Part shown: one piece after another, positions 2,307 through 32,266 of the stretch
How the letters are laid out: each line of letters starts with the position of its first letter
Numbering within the stretch: the first letter of the stretch is position 1
DNA from: an uncultured Acidimicrobiia bacterium
GTDB lineage: Bacteria; Actinomycetota; Acidimicrobiia; IMCC26256; JAENVU01
Direction: 5' to 3'
Assembly: GCA_963765075.1 (NCBI GenBank)
Contig: CAVXVA010000001.1
Coordinates: forward strand, 769,901 to 833,900
DNA: 64,000 bases
Notes under the pieces: generated by a model
The model's input: only the letters and a program-made list of their open reading frames with translations
Told to the model about the DNA's origin: nothing
The model's database searches: none
Made by a program: the position numbers and the translations under genes

Positions 2307-3416
2307 CTACTTCTTCCGGATGATCTCGGCCTTGAGGACCTTGAACTTGGGCGCGGTGGTGTTGCCGCCGATCTGCGTGTCGTAGCTGTACGAACCCTCG
2401 GAGCGGACCCAGACCCTCACGACGTCGTTCTGGTCCACCCCGGCGAGCACCGGACAGTTCGAAGCTCCATCACCGGAGGAGAAGATCGCATTGTCGCCCG
2501 CGTATTCGAAGGTGTATTCATGCTCCCGGGTGTCCCAGTAGCCCCGGAACGAGCAGGCACCCGTCGCCGCGTCGTACTGCGTGATCTCGGTGACCATGAT
2601 GAACACCTGGCCGTTGAACGCGTCGGGGTCTTTGACGATCGCGTCGACGTTGACCGGTTGTGCGCCAGCCAGTTCGGCATCGTTCTGGGCCTGGGCACAA
2701 GTCCCGATCTGGATCGCCAAGGCACCCGCGTCGGTCAGGCCGTTCCAACGGACCTCGTTACCGGCGATTGCCCGGTTGGCCGCATCTTGGGCGGCGATCG
2801 ATCCGCTCGCGACCTGAGGGCACAGTTCGCCGACCTTGGCTTGGATCTCCTGCAAGAGCAGCGCCGGGGGAATCGTTGTGGTGGTCGTGGTCGACGACGA
2901 AGTCGAGGTCGACGTCGAACCCGCCGTCTTGGACCGGAATACCCGTGGACTCGCCTTCTCGTCGTTGGCATTCCCAATCGCGGCCACCGCGGCCGCGAGT
3001 CCGACAACGACGGCGACCGCCGCCAGCCCAACCACGACCGGGCGTCGATACCAGACACGCGGAGAACGACTCGGCGTGCCCGTGCCCGTGTCCGCGACAA
3101 CTGCAGCTGGTGGCGCCTGCATTGTCACTTCGGGCGGCGGCGGAGCGGCGGCGTGCGGGTCACGGCTGACCGCACCCCCGTCCGAAACATGCTCGGACCA
3201 CCCGCTCGGCGTCAGGTACCGGTACTCGTGACGACCGGTGGGATCCGGCAGCCAACGGCCGCCGCCAGTCTGCTCGGCAGCGGCAACACCCGCCAACGGC
3301 GCGGCCGCCTCGGCGGTGTCGCTCGATTTCACCGCCCCAAGGGTCAATGCTTCACCGCACTGCCCGCAGAACCGGCTTCCCACCGGATTCTCGTGACCGT
3401 TCTTGCACGAAGTCAT
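2307..3416 (-). CDS. Zinc-ribbon + DUF2510 membrane protein with OB-fold-like extracellular domain
   Basis: CKNGHENPVGSRFCGQCG, WLPDPTGRHEYRY, TM, Ser/Thr linker, DVVRVWVRSEGSYSYDTQIGGNTTAPKF. Confidence 0.8.
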   Translation of the reverse strand: MTSCKNGHENPVGSRFCGQCGEALTLGAVKSSDTAEAAAPLAGVAAAEQTGGGRWLPDPTGRHEYRYLTPSGWSEHVSDGGAVSRDPHAAAPPPPEVTMQAPPAAVVADTGTGTPSRSPRVWYRRPVVVGLAAVAVVVGLAAAVAAIGNANDEKASPRVFRSKTAGSTSTSTSSSTTTTTTIPPALLLQEIQAKVGELCPQVASGSIAAQDAANRAIAGNEVRWNGLTDAGALAIQIGTCAQAQNDAELAGAQPVNVDAIVKDPDAFNGQVFIMVTEITQYDAATGACSFRGYWDTREHEYTFEYAGDNAIFSSGDGASNCPVLAGVDQNDVVRVWVRSEGSYSYDTQIGGNTTAPKFKVLKAEIIRKK

Positions 3417-19310: not shown

Positions 19311-20012
19311 CTAGCGCAGGGTTCGGGCCGAGGCGAGGTTCGAGTAGGGCGAGAAGCCGATCGCGTTACCGGCCCGCAGCCGATAGGTGTAGGTGGTGCG
19401 CGACGACAGCTTCGTGTCCGCGAAGGACGTCGCGGTGCCCGAAACCATGGCCACCCGGGCAAACTTGCTGCAGTCGACGCCCTTGCAGCGCTCGATCTGG
19501 ATCGAGGTCTGATTGGACGAGACGTTGGTCCAGTCCAGGCGGATCGAACTGCGCGAAATCGACGTCGCGGTCACGTTGGCGGGTGCCTGCGGCGCTGTCG
19601 GCGCGTTCACCACGATCGTCACGACGCTGGGGAAGCTGTTGAGCCCGAACCCGTCGTACACCATCAAGGTGGCGTTGTACGCGCCCGGCGTTGCGTACGT
19701 GTGCGTCGTCACTTCGCCCATTCCGGTGGAGCCGTCACCGAAGGTCCAGATCCACGTCACCAATGGGTTGGGGCCCGTCGACGCGCGACCGTCGAAGGTC
19801 ACCGTGAGGGGCGCTTCGCCCGTGGAGGGGGTCGCGGTGAAGATGGCGACCGGCTCGAGCGGTGGGAAGTCGACGGCCTGCGCCGGGGCGGCAAAGACGC
19901 CTAGCGACATCGCTGCCGCAGCGATGGCAACCGCGAGCCCTCGCCACGGTCGTCGGATCCGCCGTGAGCCTCCTCGCACAACGGGATACATGGTCACGTC
20001 AATGGCCTCCAT
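19311..20012 (-). CDS. Secreted PKD + fibronectin type III protein
   Basis: Signal peptide; GEAPLTVTFDG...WTFGDG...HTYATPGAY; FN3 APANVTAT...YTYRLRAGNAIGFSPYSN. Confidence 0.88.
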   Translation of the reverse strand: MEAIDVTMYPVVRGGSRRIRRPWRGLAVAIAAAAMSLGVFAAPAQAVDFPPLEPVAIFTATPSTGEAPLTVTFDGRASTGPNPLVTWIWTFGDGSTGMGEVTTHTYATPGAYNATLMVYDGFGLNSFPSVVTIVVNAPTAPQAPANVTATSISRSSIRLDWTNVSSNQTSIQIERCKGVDCSKFARVAMVSGTATSFADTKLSSRTTYTYRLRAGNAIGFSPYSNLASARTLR

Positions 20013-20398
20013 TGTCCTCGGTTGATCGACCGCCGTGGAACGAACGATGCGCGACGGAATGACTGCATCTTCACAGGGTCTCGCGTCGTCGCCCAGGGTC
20101 GGAAGTCCCCTAGGTTCGGAGCCGAAACCCATCACGAAGTACAAGTCCCTAACGCCTTCAGTCCGACGGTCAACGGCCTCGCGCTCCACCAACACCGGCG
20201 ACGACAACCCACTGCAATCGCCGCCTGAACCACCACCGCCTGAACCACCGAATGACTTCGGCGCGCCTGGATCAGGGCGAACGCCGGACCAACTACCGTC
20301 GCGGCACGGACGAACGCACTTCAACGTCCGAGGTGCAGCAAATCTCAGCCGGATCCCACCATCGCATCGGGTTTTCTGCCACGTTTTCTGCATCCCCC

Positions 20399-20436
20399 GC
20401 CCTCGTAGCTCAGGGGATAGAGCATTGGTTTCCTAA
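20399..20436 (+). repeat. att core: 5' half of tRNA-Arg(CCT)
   Basis: GCCCTCGTAGCTCAGGGGATAGAGCATTGGTTTCCTAA identical to 32151..32188; breaks at the end of the anticodon loop. Confidence 0.93.
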
Positions 20437-20455
20437 CCTTCGGCCCCGTCACCCG

Positions 20456-20589
20456 AAGGTGCAGGTCACAGCCTCCAGCCGCAGGTCAGACCACGTTTCG
20501 GTTGACCGCCACATACCGCGAGTGACCGCCATGACCGCCCATGACGGGCACGCAACGGGCAGCACTCCGAAGGGCACGAACGGGCACGC
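20456..20589 (+). repeat. att-arm-like repeat, copy 1
   Basis: 20456..20519 is 63/64 identical to 31297..31360; followed by TGACCGC and GGGCACG iterons. Confidence 0.85.
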
Positions 20590-23262: not shown

Positions 23263-23506
23263 GAACCCCACGGTCCACGACAGGAAGGCCAACCCGACGG
23301 ACCCCCACCAGGATCAACCAGGTGGGGCCAAATCAGGCGAGCACAACCCGTTCAAGTGGGGCCAGAACAGGTGAGCACACCCAGACGACCGACGACGCCG
23401 CTCAGATCAAGGTGCTCGAGCAAGAGAATCGCGAGTTGAAGCGGACCAACGCGATTCTTCGGTCGGCTTCGGCTTTTTTCGCGGCGGAGCTCGACCGCCC
23501 ACAGAA

Positions 23507-24415
23507 GTGATGGTGGACTACATCGACGCGCATCGCGCCGAGTTCGGAGTCGAGCCCATCTGCAAAGCACTGCAGGTGGCTCCGTCCACGCACTACGCGG
23601 CGAAGTCGCGGCCCGCGTCGGCCCGGTCGTTACGCGACGCGATGTTGATCCCGATCCTTGTCGCGATCTGGATGACGAACTACCGCGTCTACGGGGCCCA
23701 CAAGCTTTGGAAAGCCGCTCGGCGTGCCGGTCATGAGATCGGCCGGGATCAATTCGCCCGACTCATGAAAGTCTCCGGGATCGAGGGTGTGAGCCGCCGG
23801 CGACGCAAGGTCCGCACCACGCGTCCGGATCCCTCTGCGCCGCGGCCGGCGGATCTCGTCAAACGCGACTTCACCGCCGAAGCTCCGAACGCGTTGTGGG
23901 TCACGGACCTGACCTACGTGCCGACGTGGTCGGGGTTCGCGTACGTGTGTTTCATCGTCGACGCGTACTCACGGATGATCGTGGGTTGGCGCGTCGCCGC
24001 GCACATGCGGACCGACATGGTCCTCGACGCGCTCGAGATGGCCCGCTGGTCGCGTGGCACCCTGCTCGGAGGACTGCGGTGTCACTCCGACGCCGGGAGC
24101 CAGTTCACGAGTGTCCGCTACGGCGAACGCCTCGCGGATCTCGGTGCGGTCCCATCGATCGGCACGGTCGGCGATTCGTATGACAATGCCCTGGCCGAAT
24201 CGGTGAACGCGCTCTACAAGACCGAGTTGATCTACGGGCCCGGCCAAGGACCATGGCGCACGGTCGAAGACGTCGAACTCGCGACCCTCAGCTGGGTGCA
24301 CTGGCACAACACCGAGCGGCTCCACAGCCACTGCAACGACGTGCCACCCACAGAGTTCGAAACCGCGTTCTACGCTGCCCAATCAGCCGCCCCCGCAGCG
24401 GTTGGAAACCAATAG
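23507..24415 (+). CDS. IS3 transposase orfB
   Basis: WVTDLTYV, HSDAGSQF, DSYDNALAES; TGATG coupling to orfA. Confidence 0.95.
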   Translation: MMVDYIDAHRAEFGVEPICKALQVAPSTHYAAKSRPASARSLRDAMLIPILVAIWMTNYRVYGAHKLWKAARRAGHEIGRDQFARLMKVSGIEGVSRRRRKVRTTRPDPSAPRPADLVKRDFTAEAPNALWVTDLTYVPTWSGFAYVCFIVDAYSRMIVGWRVAAHMRTDMVLDALEMARWSRGTLLGGLRCHSDAGSQFTSVRYGERLADLGAVPSIGTVGDSYDNALAESVNALYKTELIYGPGQGPWRTVEDVELATLSWVHWHNTERLHSHCNDVPPTEFETAFYAAQSAAPAAVGNQ

Positions 24416-24649: not shown

Positions 24650-25258
24650 CTACCTCGCGTCCGTCTTCGGCTCAAGGTGCGGAGCAAAGTCTGAAACATA
24701 CGAATCGAACCCAGCGCGGCGTATTGTCAGGAAGTACTTGTGCCAATATTTCCCATCCAGAAACTCGTGCTCCTTCAAACATCCTTCAACTTCAAACAAT
24801 CGTCCGCGTCCAGCTGCAATACGCTCATAGTTGAACTCGAGCATCTCCATATAGATTTGTCGAAGAGGCCAGCTATCAAAGCAATACCGCAAAAACAGCC
24901 CCACCATTTCCAGCGCCCAACCCTGCGCTTCAAATGCCGGGGCAAGGATCGTGGAAAGCCACGCCGTGCCGCTTCTCAGATCAGCGTTGTAGAGCGAAGC
25001 CAACCCGATCGGCTTTGCGTCGCTCCGCCGCACACCGAGGTATTGCACCAGAACACCCTGATATAGTGTTTGCGCAAACTGATCAGGACTCGGGGGTGCA
25101 CTTCGGAACCGCCATCGATGAATGTTCTCCGGTGCGGTACCTATAGAGAAAAGAAAATCATAGTCTCGCGGGCCAACAGGTCGGAGCGAGACCCTCGCAC
25201 CGACAAGTCTTGCCGTTACGTCAGCCCATGCTGCATCGGGAACGCTGAGGTCATCCAT
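24650..25258 (-). CDS. GNAT (RimJ/RimL-like) acyltransferase
   Basis: RVSLRPV..DYDFL, PIGLASLY, EAQGWA (motif A-like), N..., FEVEGCLKEHEFLDGKYW; ATG overlaps the ACP stop (TGATG). Confidence 0.88.
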   Translation of the reverse strand: MDDLSVPDAAWADVTARLVGARVSLRPVGPRDYDFLFSIGTAPENIHRWRFRSAPPSPDQFAQTLYQGVLVQYLGVRRSDAKPIGLASLYNADLRSGTAWLSTILAPAFEAQGWALEMVGLFLRYCFDSWPLRQIYMEMLEFNYERIAAGRGRLFEVEGCLKEHEFLDGKYWHKYFLTIRRAGFDSYVSDFAPHLEPKTDAR

Positions 25259-25504
25259 CAAACGGCGCCTGACTCGCGATACCGGTCATAAAGGTCGCCC
25301 AACGTCACAAGCGAGGACGCAAGCCGTTCCGGAACGACGGCACCTAGAGACTCCATAAGGGCGATAGTCTCAAAGAGCTGCAGGGAGTCAAGACCGATTT
25401 CCCTTACGAGTTCCGTGGACCGGCCCCAGTCACCTCGTTCAATTTGGAGCCCATCTGAAAGGATGACACAGAACTGCTCAAAGTCTCTAGGAATCGGCGT
25501 TCAC
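25258..25504 (-). CDS. Acyl carrier protein (not in ORF track; start codon appears one base out of frame)
   Basis: Open frame 25500 to 25258: TPIPRDFEQFCVILSDGLQIERGDWGRSTELVREIGLDSLQLFETIALMESLGAVVPERLASSLVTLGDLYDRYRESGAV*; GLDSL phosphopantetheine motif and TLGDL helix IV. Confidence 0.85.
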
Positions 25505-25515
25505 CTTCATCCTGC

Positions 25516-26261
25516 TTAACCTCCAGCGGCATTCGTCGCCGTGCGAATAAATTGGTCAAGTTCGGGCATGGACATTGAGGCAACCTTCGCCACAATTGGA
25601 TTCTCAAATTGATCACGAGAGTCTTCGCGTTTCCACCGTCGGCAGTAACTGCAAGGCCGACTGGATGGACAAGGCGGTAGTATCCGCTTTCAGCGGTGAC
25701 CCTGTCGGCGGGGAGACCGAGTCGTTGAGCTTCAGAGCGTTTGCTTCGGAGGAAAAAAATGTTGGGTCCGTCCCCGTCAAGTTCCTTCAACCCGCTGACA
25801 AACGCCTCGGCAGCACGCGGGTCGCTCACGGGTATTGGGAATTCCAAGCGGACGAGCCCTCCGCCGTCTCTGTCAGGATCGTTCCCAGCGAGGAGTGACA
25901 CCACCGAAATGGACATGACTCCGTACTGAACCTGCGTCTCCTTCTCCTCGCCGAAAGACCTGCCGAGCTTCACGTCAACCACCGTCGCTGCGACAACCGC
26001 GTCGGACCGCGTCGCAAGCTCGGACAGGTCAGAATATTCCTCCACGAAGAGAATAGCGCTGTTTCCCTCATCAAACGAGAAGCGATTCCATGCACCACTT
26101 GAGGGGCCTCGTGGATACGATGGAGTCGCCTGCACGTCGAGTGATCCGCTACCCGGCCGACTCTGAACACGAGTTTCCGTCTTTGAGCCGCAACCGGCAA
26201 CAATCGTTACAACGATCGGAATCAGTAGGATTCGGCTCAAAAGCGATCTGGTCAGCTTCAT
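25516..26261 (-). CDS. Lipoprotein of unknown function, possibly NTR/TIMP-like; frameshift near 25620
   Basis: MKLTRSLLSRILLIPIVVTIVAGC lipobox; YSDLSELATRSDAVVAATVVDV; alternate-frame C-terminus ENPIVAKVASMSMPELDQFIRTATNAAGG*. Confidence 0.75.
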
Positions 26262-26275
26262 TGTTCCGCCTATTG

Positions 26276-26896
26276 CTAGTATGCTTGGTTGATCCACCCG
26301 TCGATCTCGTGGGTCTCTAGGTTTAGAGGCCAAGGATAATCCACGTCACTTACCATACAAGAAGACGAGGAAGAGGTATGCCGCAGCCCAACGGTGTGGC
26401 CGAGTTCGTGGCAAGCCATATACTTCCGACCCTCCGAAGTATAGAACGTATCGTCGAATGTATAAGCTAGATTATACTTCAAAGTTTGATTAAAGCAGCC
26501 CTCAAGAGGGTCGGCGCCTGATCTCGTAGCGCCATCAGGGCAATTGACCCAAGCAAACACGCCGTTCAGGCCAAAGTCGTCGTCGTAGAGCCGAACGTCG
26601 GCGGAAGTGTTGTCTGCGTTGAACTGAATGGTTAGATTCGTCGGTGCATAGACGTTCTGCAGGGCGTCAATCGTCGATTGACGCAGAGCGTTATTGCCGA
26701 AGCTGTGAAACGAAACGCTGTGCACCGAAGGCGACCCACCACCGCCGAGAGATACTTCGTTTTGAACCACGCCGTTGAGTCGTGGGGTGGAGCCCCAGTT
26801 ATTGGCACCCGCAGTCCGCACGAACCCAAGCGAAGCCAAAGTCGTCAGGCTCGAGACTGCTGCCACCCGCTTCGAATACTTCATCTTGCTAAGCAC
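26276..26896 (-). CDS. Secreted matrixin-like metzincin metalloprotease
   Basis: Signal peptide ending AGA; HELGHTVGLRH (HExxHxxGxxH); Met-turn SCM; AGGGAG RBS. Confidence 0.9.
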   Translation of the reverse strand: MLSKMKYSKRVAAVSSLTTLASLGFVRTAGANNWGSTPRLNGVVQNEVSLGGGGSPSVHSVSFHSFGNNALRQSTIDALQNVYAPTNLTIQFNADNTSADVRLYDDDFGLNGVFAWVNCPDGATRSGADPLEGCFNQTLKYNLAYTFDDTFYTSEGRKYMACHELGHTVGLRHTSSSSSCMVSDVDYPWPLNLETHEIDGWINQAY

Positions 26897-26962
26897 GCTG
26901 TCGCTCCCTTTTGGACCTCGTGCTTGGACCCGGAAGTCCAGCTTGAGGAGAGCATCACACTC

Positions 26963-26991
26963 AAGGTACCGACCGATGGATCAGGTATCAA
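26963..26991 (-). promoter_or_regulatory. Candidate sigma70-type promoter of the protease operon
   Basis: TTGATA-17 nt-TACCTT on the minus strand. Confidence 0.5.
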
Positions 26992-27021: not shown

Positions 27022-27623
27022 GGCTCGCCGCCTGATCGGTGGGGATTGTGTCATGCCCGTCCGGGGCAGTGCATGAGGACACGGGTCGGGTAGTTGTCGG
27101 CGTTGCGGAACCCGCAGCCGATCCGCTTGACGTGTTTCACCTTGCGGTTGAGTCCCTCGGTGCACGCGTTGGTGATTCCGAGTTCGAACGACGCGATGAT
27201 CGGGTCGTGCCAGCGGTCGAGAGTGTGACCGAGCCGGACGAGTTCGTCGATGCCCGAATCCGCAAGCAAGCCGAGCAGGCGTCCCCACCGTCCGATCGAC
27301 GGCACGTCCCAACACGCACGCGCTTCTTCTTTCACGAGGTACGCGTAGCCGATCTCCCCGTCGGGGTCTTCGGGTCCGGTGAGCGCGGTGAACAGTCGGT
27401 CGTGTTGAGGGTCAGTGAGTCGCTCGTGTGCCTTGAGCAGCAGGTGGCGGGCGCGCCACACGTCGTCGATCTTGCGGCCGCGGCGCCGGTGGATCGCCCA
27501 CGCGTTGCGGCGGCGGATCTCATCGATCGCTTGGTGAAACAACCGCAGGGCATGGAACTTGTCCAACACCACAATCGCGTGGGGCAGCCACTGCCGGACC
27601 GCGGCGCGGAACGGTGCACACGC
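27022..27623 (-). pseudogene. ISL3-family transposase 3' part with terminal IR, truncated at the IS6 end
   Basis: LPHAIVVLDKFH, TNACTEGLNRKVKHVKRIGCGFRN; GGCTC end at 27022. Confidence 0.85.
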
Positions 27624-31186: not shown

Positions 31187-31296
31187 ATTCAAGCGTAAGG
31201 CCCCGGCGGTGCTGGAATGTCGCACGACCGCGTGATACTTCGACACAGACCCGGGGACCGGCACGGGTCGCGCTTCCTGCGCCGCGCTGCGATCCA

Positions 31297-31404
31297 AAGG
31301 TGCAGGTCACAGCCTCCAGCCGCGGGTCAGACCACGTTTCGGTTGACCGCCACATACCGCCATTGACCGCAATGACCAGCCATGACCGGCACGAACGGGC
31401 ACGC
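31297..31404 (+). repeat. att-arm-like repeat, copy 2
   Basis: Direct repeat of 20456 onward, ending GGCACGAACGGGCACG. Confidence 0.85.
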
Positions 31405-31473: not shown

Positions 31474-31704
31474 ATGGCCTACGAACGCATCACCGTCGAC
31501 CCGGCCCAAATGGGTGGGCTCCCATGTATCCGTGGGATGCGCATCACCGTGGGCACGATCGTGGGCCAGCTGGGTGCCGGCCGCACGATCGATGAAGTCC
31601 TCACCGACTACCCATATCTCGAACACGGCGATGTACTCGCCGCGTTGGAATACGCGGCGGACGCAGTGAGCGAACGCTAGCTTCCGCTGACCCGCCCCGC
31701 GTGA
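31474..31704 (+). CDS. DUF433 antitoxin (VapB45-like); TAG at 31678 shortens it
   Basis: RITVDPAQMGGLPCIRGMRITV...DYPYLEHGDVLAALEYAA; reading past TAG gives LPLTRPA* overlapping the toxin GTG. Confidence 0.88.
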
Positions 31705-31963
31705 GGTTTCTCGTCGACGCAAACCTCGCGCCGCGCATTGCATCGGCGCTCACGGCCAGCGGGCACGACGCGATCCACGTGTTCGATGCGGGCCTCGCCA
31801 CGGCCTCCGACCGCACGATCCTCGAAGCTGCGTTCGCCGGGAATCGGATCATCGTTTCGAGCGACGCCGACTTCGGTACGCTGCTGGCCGAGTACGACCG
31901 TCAGAAGCCATCGATCGGACGCGGATCCGTGTCCGTCGCCTTCCGATCCTCCGCGGCGCGTAA
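31701..31963 (+). pseudogene. DUF5615 PIN-like toxin (VapC45-like), internally deleted
   Basis: MRFLVDANL...GHDAIHV...ASDRTIL...IIVSSDADFG; C-terminal RIRVRRLPI is out of frame. Confidence 0.8.
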
Positions 31964-32150
31964 CCACCAGGGAGGCCTGTGCTTGAGCGCGTTCGCGAAC
32001 GACACGGTCATCGCGATCGGGTGTTCGTGAGGCGTTTCGCGAGTACAACGCGCATAGATCAGGCACGGAGCAACAATCCGACCGGGTGCAACCACATCGA
32101 CCACGGGCACGAGCTCCAGCGATGTGACCGGTAGCCTCGAAACTTAGAAC

Positions 32151-32223
32151 GCCCTCGTAGCTCAGGGGATAGAGCATTGGTTTCCTAAACCATGTGCCGC
32201 AGGTTCGAATCCTGCCGAGGGCA
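32151..32223 (+). tRNA. tRNA-Arg(CCT)
   Basis: Acceptor stem GCCCTCG/CGAGGGC-A, D arm, anticodon loop TTCCTAA, T arm GCAGG-TTCGAAT-CCTGC; CCA not encoded. Confidence 0.97.
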
Positions 32224-32266
32224 CCGGCCGCACCCGCGGCGATGAACACCGAGAGGGATCTCGCTC

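Follow-up and report, generated by a model that had tools for sequence, protein, structure and literature searches.

A tRNA island in an uncultured Acidimicrobiia bacterium carries what is probably a degenerate copy of a conserved, mobile four-gene cassette of soil and sediment actinobacteria that joins two older two-gene units. The window analysed here, 64,000 nucleotides (nt) of contig CAVXVA010000001.1 from assembly GCA_963765075.1 (positions 769,901 to 833,900, forward strand), contains four collinear minus-strand frames at 24650-26896, read from the sequence and its list of open reading frames (ORFs). One unit pairs a secreted metzincin protease with a lipoprotein, and the other a GNAT-family acyltransferase with an acyl carrier protein (ACP). 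In the direction of transcription the genes are:

26276-26896, minus strand: secreted minimal metzincin, 206 residues, with a signal peptide, the zinc motif HELGHTVGLRH and a Cys-Met turn
25516-26261, minus strand: lipoprotein with lipobox IVAGC and an NTR/TIMP-like OB domain, frameshifted; ATG at 26261, uninterrupted ORF to 25404
25258-25500, minus strand: ACP frame, 80 codons from stop to stop, with the motif GLDSL and a sub-threshold PP-binding match
24650-25258, minus strand: GNAT acyltransferase, 202 residues, Acetyltransf_3 family, its start overlapping the ACP stop

The first-pass annotation of this DNA had described four tightly packed minus-strand genes, and their frames and junctions are as it described them: 14 nt lie between the metzincin stop and the lipoprotein ATG, and the ACP stop overlaps the GNAT start as TGATG. 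All four frames are present; two of the genes are irregular, the lipoprotein in its frameshift and the ACP in its lack of a canonical start. The AT-richness reported for the block also holds. Both flanks have a GC content of 0.65 and the window as a whole 0.667; that of the block is 0.55, and the count of 27 G or C among the 60 nt at 24841-24900 is exact.

The four-gene linkage recurs

The four-gene linkage is real rather than a product of chance, and it is conserved in one metzincin clade. We counted homologues by profile searches of all six reading frames, a word-indexed protein search being too insensitive: it returned only the query itself for the GNAT (1 match among 187 candidates) and for the lipoprotein (1 among 3771). 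Profiles found a metzincin homologue in 23 of 401 genomes of the class, in 0 of 17 genomes of the window's own family and, at E<=1e-8, in 21 of 401 genomes sampled across the phylum. The last tally includes the unpublished genomes G413, G429 and G730, whose loci were left out of the locus analysis. A metagenome survey covered the best 80 of 118 metzincin relatives.

Five further lineages carry the linkage. Genome G167 reads metzincin-lipoprotein-GNAT-ACP and adjoins a serine recombinase and a VapB-like antitoxin; G330 reads metzincin-lipoprotein-ACP-GNAT, with a convergent fatty acyl-AMP ligase (FAAL) and a glycosyltransferase. G514, from another class, repeats the G167 order beside an HTH_17 protein and a TrwC relaxase. 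Among the metagenome loci, L063 and L064 are 95.7% identical to G167, L067 follows the metzincin and lipoprotein with a single GNAT-ACP fusion protein, and L070 reads metzincin-lipoprotein-GNAT, its GNAT split over two frames. With G167, L063 and L064 taken as one, the cassette lineages total six (these five and the window) in two classes.

The genes have stayed together while their sequences diverged. Window and G167 proteins share 39% identity in the metzincin, 31% in the lipoprotein and 37% in the GNAT, and across lineages the cassette proteins are 22-43% identical with the linkage kept. The copies sit in mobile contexts: insertion sequence (IS) elements in the window, a serine recombinase with VapB in G167 and a TrwC relaxase in G514. 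Neither the window nor the G167 metzincin matched any protein in phage and plasmid collections, and the cassette DNA matched nothing in the plasmid collection. The first-pass annotation had proposed a module in which an exported protease and its partner are coupled to an ACP and GNAT of their own, and had let the proposal hang on conserved linkage of GNAT-ACP pairs to protease and lipoprotein genes. That linkage recurs in the five further lineages, and natural fusions back the pairing of GNAT with ACP.

Most simply, the two units were fused once in the distant past and rearranged afterwards. In a metzincin tree of 42 rows a single branch (SH-aLRT 92) sets the six GNAT-linked rows apart, and GNAT linkage requires a single change, a number reached in 0 of 500 shuffles; long branches call for caution in reading this result. 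The linked GNATs are compatible with a single clade, since the tree constrained to one had the higher likelihood (p-AU 0.85). We also considered repeated recruitment of the GNAT, because FastTree and a quick IQ-TREE run split the linked GNATs (3 changes), and dropped it on the same one-clade test.

A matrixin-fold protease with an NTR-fold partner

The metzincin has, according to its predicted structure, the matrixin or matrix metalloproteinase (MMP) catalytic-domain fold. Sequence profiles reach this family only marginally: the window protein scores 25.0 bits against a cut-off of 24 for Pfam Peptidase_M10, over residues 152-182 only. The H, E, H and H of HExxHxxGxxH are invariant in family alignments of 15 and 42 rows. 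In the Met-turn motif SCM, the same alignments have an invariant C and a nearly invariant M, at the level of sequence. The family thus retains the zinc motif, four Cys residues and the Met-turn, and it has no prodomain. An AlphaFold model of the metzincin (predicted local distance difference test, pLDDT, 79) matched 211 chains at E<=0.001 in Foldseek, and those listed are all MMP or karilysin catalytic domains. The best was MMP-11 (1hv5; E 4.4e-7, TM score 0.54-0.66, probability 1.0). Clade-specific residues of the linked metzincins and lipoproteins were also considered as evidence and dropped, being indistinguishable from shared ancestry.

Structure modelling likewise indicates that the lipoprotein carries an NTR/TIMP-fold domain. 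Pfam has no family for the protein, and its TIMP family (PF00965) goes unmatched. The intact G167 lipoprotein was modelled as an OB barrel (pLDDT 75) and compared with 48,161 chains by VIA structure matching. All top seven matches are NTR modules, with Z from 9.9 to 6.1: agrin NtA (9.9), PCOLCE NTR (7.8), N-TIMP-3 (7.8), meteorin NTR (7.0), TIMP-1 (6.5) and complement C4 and C3. Foldseek weakly gives the same NTR families, and the protein Atlas offers a weak lead, a score of 0.77 to a cluster in which 13% of members have TIMP.

The partner resembles TIMPs in fold and in the company it keeps, and departs from them at its N-terminus. Like N-TIMP-3 (3cki), TIMP-1 (1uea) and agrin NtA (1jb3), it has an OB-type NTR fold (Z 9.9 to 6.5 over 105-114 aligned residues), and it pairs with an MMP-fold protease. 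Unlike them it matches no Pfam TIMP family, is only 7-14% identical and has no free N-terminal Cys for zinc chelation; its only N-terminal Cys is the lipobox Cys, which would be lipidated and stands ahead of a linker, about 80 residues before the NTR domain. Because no free N-terminal Cys precedes the NTR domain, the lipoprotein is not a canonical TIMP.

A complex model supports, without proving, binding of the lipoprotein to the metzincin. In three runs the G167 pair scored an ipSAE of 0.90, whereas none of three controls rose above 0.00. For calibration, 58 of 80 solved complexes attain this mark, as do 2 of 110 mismatched pairs. At least 94% of contacts are common to the runs, and the partner's pLDDT is at least 90. 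The modelled interface includes H124, E125, H128 and H134 of the metzincin and the segment just before the NTR domain. In this arrangement the NTR domain and the preceding linker would cover the catalytic His/Glu cleft of the protease.

Genomic pairing of the two is common. A lipoprotein homologue lies directly downstream of the metzincin in 65 of the 80 metagenome loci, and directly after it in 10 of 24 phylum loci having only 1.5-kb flanks. A further tally of such pairs, 72 of 98, is an undercount, because its rule required the lipoprotein to start after the end of the metzincin match and missed overlapping pairs (L050, L075, L076). Two variants stand apart. Metagenome locus L066 has a metzincin followed by two lipoprotein homologues (1028-1672 and 2576-3214), which lie about 900 nt apart, and lacks a GNAT. 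An insertion of about 50 residues, forming a helical hairpin within the NTR domain, occurs in L039, L067 and L070, three of the four GNAT-linked lipoproteins compared; the window and G330 copies lack it, as do 39 of 40 unlinked homologues.

The protease-lipoprotein unit has a described counterpart. Excerpts of Boichis et al. (2021, PMC8235301) describe Mtz-Tim of Listeria monocytogenes, a secreted metzincin with a predicted TIMP-like lipoprotein, located near integrases, transposases and recombinases. In that account Tim is cut ahead of its TIMP-like domain, some 50 residues in from the N-terminus, and the pair affects the cell wall. The cassette shares the adjacency of secreted metzincin and TIMP-like lipoprotein and the mobile-element setting, and the segment before the NTR domain, which corresponds to the region of the Tim cleavage site, lies in the protease cleft of the G167 model. 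Unlike the Listeria system as excerpted, it belongs to Actinomycetota and has no cI/cro regulators, and the likeness drawn here is one of arrangement and predicted fold. Neither "acetyltransferase" nor "acyl carrier" occurs in the main text of PMC8235301, so the GNAT-ACP pair is not part of Mtz-Tim.

A second parallel comes from Tannerella forsythia. Karilysin, an MMP-like protease, is co-transcribed with the OB-fold lipoprotein inhibitor potempin A, which blocks the active-site cleft and protects the producer's surface, as excerpts of PMC9890683 relate. By the same excerpts, potempin genes lie upstream of their protease genes and potempins are outer-membrane lipoproteins of 98-132 residues. 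The partner described here differs in being encoded downstream, in its length of 210-310 residues, in its NTR-like fold and in its monoderm host. The first-pass annotation knew of no described system with this architecture, which stands for the four-gene whole and not for the protease-lipoprotein half, the Mtz-Tim arrangement (PMC8235301, as excerpted). We found no description of the four-gene whole, or of the GNAT-ACP family, in the open-access literature.

A SpeG-like GNAT with its own carrier

The second unit is built around a SpeG-like GNAT. It matches Pfam PF13302 (Acetyltransf_3) at 42.8 bits against a cut-off of 25.4 (E 1.1e-10), and in sequence the nearest enzymes of solved structure are the SpeG spermidine N-acetyltransferases (E 7e-12). 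NCBIfam offers only SpeG, PseH and RimL models, every one below its cut-off. HlyC, LuxI and N-acyl amino acid synthase families are unmatched, Pfam at E<=1 giving Acetyltransf_3 alone. The family is large, with 5747 representatives at E<=1e-3 and 862 at E<=1e-30, and the gene is rare among relatives of the window's genome (4 of 41 genomes, its own included).

GNAT and carrier belong together, as fusions in both orders and the adjacency of ACP genes indicate. Four of ten long GNAT-family members scanned are clear fusions, two per order: P0034 and P0050 place the GNAT before the PP-binding domain, P0045 and P0046 after it. Homologous ACPs adjoin the GNAT in G167, G330, G514 and L067. Their Ser motif is GLDSL in the window, G167 and L067, GFDSL in G514 and GVESL in G330. 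Against the Pfam PF00550 cut-off of 20.8, the window carrier scores 18.7, G167 19.2, L067 18.8 and G514 21.0; G330 has no match. We also collected 19 GNAT-centred genome loci with a GNAT profile. An ACP-like ORF follows the GNAT directly in 10 of them at E<=0.011 (two of the ten had seeded the ACP profile), and DSL motifs occur after the GNAT at weaker scores in three more.

Some of these pairs have a ligase beside them. Near the GNAT, 5 of the 19 loci encode a FAAL homologue, as does G330, six loci together, and the best NCBIfam rows for this neighbour are fatty acyl-AMP ligase (FAAL) and ACP-loading MbtM, all below their cut-offs. The first-pass annotation had found the ACP unexplained by any polyketide synthase (PKS), non-ribosomal peptide synthetase (NRPS) or ligase nearby; the island indeed holds none, and it is the relatives, with a FAAL/MbtM-like ligase beside the pair, that account for the ACP. 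Other neighbours vary and include sulfotransferase, sulfatase, TldD/PmbA and MauE genes.

Several loci show further arrangements of the pair. In G000, the window's own genome, the sole detected FAAL-like gene is on another contig (C8:133846-135285, E 2e-35, in a 677-residue frame). G010, from the window's genus (L003/L020), has on one strand a 423-residue Kelch-repeat lipoprotein, a GNAT, a Ser-less ACP-like ORF, an ACP and a FAAL. Loci L007, L012, L013 and L016 of Microthrixaceae are syntenic, with a conserved membrane protein of about 285 residues (no Pfam family) ahead of the GNAT-ACP pair and TldD/PmbA-type metallopeptidase genes after it, a second and unrelated association of the pair with peptidases. 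Among the carriers that follow the GNAT in L013, L016, L012, L007 and L017, several have CxDSLDL-type motifs. The Ser is lost in L017 (CRDELDL) and L007 (CRDATDL), which suggests degenerate or non-carrier copies, and L017 and L020 each hold one degenerate and one intact carrier copy in tandem.

Known chemistry offers a template for the trio. In mycobactin synthesis, MbtM (a FAAL) charges MbtL (an ACP), and MbtK, a GNAT-fold lysine N-acyltransferase, acylates an aliphatic amine. The relatives of the cassette share the set of ligase, dedicated ACP and GNAT-fold enzyme, and the MbtM model is among the best NCBIfam matches of the ligase. They differ in having an Acetyltransf_3, SpeG-like GNAT (a sub-threshold Acetyltransf_8 row appears for L067 only) and no siderophore assembly line, and the ligase is missing from the window. 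Use of a carrier-bound acyl group in place of CoA by a GNAT is known from SbzI in a natural-product pathway (PMC11685415, in excerpt); by that excerpt, the acyl group and acceptor differ from those considered here, and the likeness drawn here is one of putative function.

The window copy is probably damaged

The window copy is probably degenerate, decaying in place, or else mis-assembled. The lipoprotein family profile fits positions 10-200 in one frame (E 2e-39) and then stops; positions 206-229, the conserved C-terminal helix, resume in a second frame at 25689-25519. The second piece is weak alone (E 0.2, 24 residues), collinear with the first and similar to the C-termini of intact relatives, and its frame closes with TAA just before the ACP ribosome-binding site. 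These features place a frameshift near 25620-25630, leaving the last 30 or so residues in the other frame, while the unshifted ORF runs through about 90 aberrant codons into the ACP.

The ACP frame has its own defect. It has no in-frame ATG, GTG or TTG before the Ser and opens four codons ahead of helix 1. An in-frame ATT at 25494-25492 occupies the position of the ATG in the G167 homologue, with AGGTGA 6 nt upstream, and the ATG behind GGAGG (25510) is out of the ACP frame and meets a stop after seven codons. The start is a rare ATT start, a lost start or a sequence error.

Read archives bear on the region without reaching the suspect sites. Six DNA sequencing runs hold small shares of it (0.08-0.14). 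Contigs from four of these runs contributed six short pieces. Five agree with the window throughout, and the sixth, of 34 nt, differs from it at 3 letters; the pieces cover 24839-25377 and 26061-26679, and none spans the suspect sites at 25480-25700. Judged from its sequence, the window copy is likely inactive unless its defects are assembly errors. The intact copies in G167, G514 and G330 are more informative than the window copy, which is probably a relic.

A candidate acyl relay and its alternatives

Together the two units suggest, with moderate confidence, a carrier-dependent acylation system tied to a guarded protease. The first would act at the envelope: a prodomain-less, MMP-fold zinc protease is secreted, and the membrane-anchored lipoprotein encoded downstream would, in this Mtz-Tim-like pair, inhibit or guard it, or else be a partner that is cleaved, as Tim is in Listeria. 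The second would act in the cytoplasm, where the dedicated carrier of the SpeG-like GNAT would be phosphopantetheinylated and would next receive a fatty acyl group from a FAAL/MbtM-type ligase, which some relatives encode beside the pair and which here lies elsewhere or is missing. Finally, the GNAT would move the acyl group from acyl-S-ACP to a primary amine. Such a ligase-carrier-GNAT relay is the best reading because of the fusions, the private carrier and the FAAL/MbtM-like neighbours. We infer that the acyl group moves in this direction, that the donor is a fatty acyl one and that the acceptor is tied to the protease pair or envelope. An envelope, cell-wall or small amine could well be the acceptor, at somewhat below even odds; acylation of the protease or lipoprotein itself is on the unlikely side, and so is a GNAT-ACP pair with no functional tie to the protease pair.

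A number of observations weigh against this reading. The GNAT and ACP, neither of which has an export signal, are cytoplasmic, the protease and lipoprotein exported. Linkage is the minority state: a GNAT follows the lipoprotein in 4 of the 80 metagenome loci (L063, L064, L067 and L070) and in 5 of 49 metzincin-lipoprotein loci with at least 800 nt past the lipoprotein, three of these being one lineage, and 0 of the 19 GNAT-centred genome loci contain a metzincin or lipoprotein homologue. The linked GNATs fit a single origin, so recurrence may reflect one ancestral juxtaposition inherited with mobile DNA, not repeated selection. The carrier scores at or under the Pfam cut-off in most copies. 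No ligase, PKS or NRPS lies within the island, which leaves the window copy without a ligase; only one of the six cassette lineages (G330) has an adjacent one, and the 80 metagenome metzincin loci contain no FAAL (0/80). Solved MMP-TIMP complexes seen in training may have helped the complex model to its strong score. Two defects mark the window copy, and none of the sequencing runs listed for the region is an RNA run.

Modification of the exported proteins themselves is one alternative; the first-pass annotation had raised it beside that of an acylated signal or peptide, and our computations favour neither. The GNAT would fatty-acylate a Lys or the N-terminus of the pre-protease or lipoprotein before export, an activation or anchoring step like that of HlyC; we consider this unlikely. 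HlyC and ApxC carry out acyl-ACP-dependent lysine acylation of exported toxins, drawing on the housekeeping ACP and acting on type I secretion substrates. The tight operon with its TGATG overlap, a four-gene linkage kept over deep divergence and closest solved relatives (SpeG) that acylate aliphatic primary amines all fit such a role. In G010, moreover, the Kelch-repeat lipoprotein precedes GNAT-ACP-ACP-FAAL. Two Lys positions are present in 4 of 5 linked metzincin rows, against 5% and 3% of 37 unlinked ones, but clade-specific Lys residues are expected from shared ancestry alone. The window GNAT, unlike HlyC and ApxC, has no HlyC-family match in Pfam, substrates with export signals would have to cross the membrane acylated, and most GNAT-ACP pairs lie in unrelated contexts. 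In its fullest form, where a fatty acyl group from the private ACP targets the protease or lipoprotein to the membrane or switches it on before export and the system is spread by mobile elements, we regard the idea as unlikely.

Absence of any coupling is about as unlikely, yet a real alternative. Two independent units would have been joined once on a mobile element and co-inherited as hitch-hiking cargo. Both units are far commoner apart, the tree test allows the linked GNATs a single origin, every copy sits in a mobile setting and the window copy is probably decaying. Set against this are the metzincin-lipoprotein-(GNAT/ACP) order and the short or overlapping junctions, which persist at 22-43% identity in two classes, despite a GNAT/ACP order swap and one fusion.

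The carrier system might instead protect the producer from its own enzyme, a reading we find quite unlikely. An acyl- or aminoacyl-carrier and the GNAT would modify a wall or membrane amine (a peptidoglycan-precursor diamino acid, a polyamine or a lipid head group) and so confer tolerance of a wall-active protease. The logic resembles that of the Dlt carrier system, or of lysostaphin and the Fem-like factor that gives immunity to it. A SpeG-like GNAT suits this role, as does the altered cell wall reported for Listeria Mtz-Tim (PMC8235301, in excerpt). Neighbours of GNAT-ACP pairs are often envelope-related (sulfotransferase, sulfatase, MauE, membrane or secreted proteins), an observation made without a control. 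Yet wall action by this metzincin is hypothetical, the adjacent ligases resemble fatty-acyl rather than amino-acid ligases, and we know of no carrier-dependent GNAT that modifies peptidoglycan precursors.

A diffusible product is comparably doubtful. Here the FAAL, ACP and GNAT would make an N-acyl amine, amino acid or peptide, a signal or metalloprotease modulator that works with the protease or is processed by it. The parallel between the FAAL-ACP-GNAT triad and mycobactin MbtM-MbtL-MbtK, with the MbtM model among the best matches, speaks for such a product, as do the TldD/PmbA peptidases beside GNAT-ACP in the L012 cluster and the precedent of carrier-dependent GNATs in natural-product pathways (SbzI; PMC11685415, in excerpt). 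No cassette copy contains a precursor peptide or further tailoring genes, however, and the protease is extracellular whereas synthesis would be cytoplasmic, with no exporter linked.

Finally, it is very unlikely that the GNAT loads its carrier to give a short acyl-ACP starter: the fusions in both orders do resemble the GNAT-ACP loading didomains that occur in some polyketide synthases, but none of the cassette loci G167, G330 and G514 encodes a ketosynthase or any other enzyme that would act downstream, a loader is already at hand in the FAAL-type ligases next to the pair, and the GNAT sequence is closest to N-acetyltransferases.

The island and its surroundings

The cassette lies in an 11.8-kb island. 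A direct repeat of 39 nt, exact in its two copies at 20398-20436 and 32150-32188, bounds it and corresponds to the 5' half of tRNA-Arg-CCT, the sole tRNA of the window. The source assembly is 93.6% complete in 8 contigs. Features around the cassette are:

20398-20436, plus strand: left island border, a 39-nt exact copy of the tRNA-Arg 5' half
23322-24415, plus strand: IS3-type element on the GNAT side of the cassette, with an rve transposase and an ALIL frameshift pseudoknot
26991-26963, minus strand: TTGATA-17-TACCTT, proposed promoter, a weak consensus match
27051-27572, minus strand: ISL3 transposase fragment on the promoter side of the cassette (DDE_Tnp_ISL3, profile positions 79-240 of 240 only)
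32150-32225, plus strand: tRNA-Arg(CCT), including the right copy of the 39-nt repeat (32150-32188)

As the first-pass annotation had stated, the four genes are the only coherent cargo of the island. Elsewhere the scanned part consists of IS material (IstB/IstA, two IS3-type elements, the ISL3 fragment and an IS30), and the cassette is its only non-transposase content. The letters of the proposed promoter are present, and its standing as a promoter is weaker: the -10 hexamer TACCTT agrees with the consensus at only 3 of 6 positions, and a consensus scan of the region missed the site, returning one promoter-like site, on the other strand, where 0.7 were expected.

The borders have further features. 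A second direct repeat, of 100 nt and 92% identical, lies at 20453-20552 and 31294-31393; its left copy is 17 nt past the tRNA fragment and its right copy about 750 nt before the tRNA, with a DUF433 gene (31474-31680) and a small ORF (31701-32030) in between. By this arrangement the two island ends are not simple att sites. The ALIL pseudoknot (23471-23584; Rfam RF01497, 95 bits) is at the frameshift site of the IS3-type element adjoining the cassette. Just beyond the left border, a secreted PKD and fibronectin-III protein is encoded on the minus strand (19311-20393).

Implications

Pairing of the Mtz-Tim type has so far been studied in Listeria; these findings place it in uncultured Acidimicrobiia and further Actinomycetota as well, where it is common (65 of the 80 loci). 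They also bring to light a large, apparently unstudied family of SpeG-like GNATs with their own carrier, often fused to it and often accompanied by a FAAL, which implies a widespread carrier-dependent N-acylation chemistry. The two units, kept together in one metzincin clade across deep divergence, make a testable system for an acyl-modified protease-inhibitor pair or target. If acylation before export proved true, it would be a carrier-dependent route of protein lipidation not described in Gram-positive bacteria.

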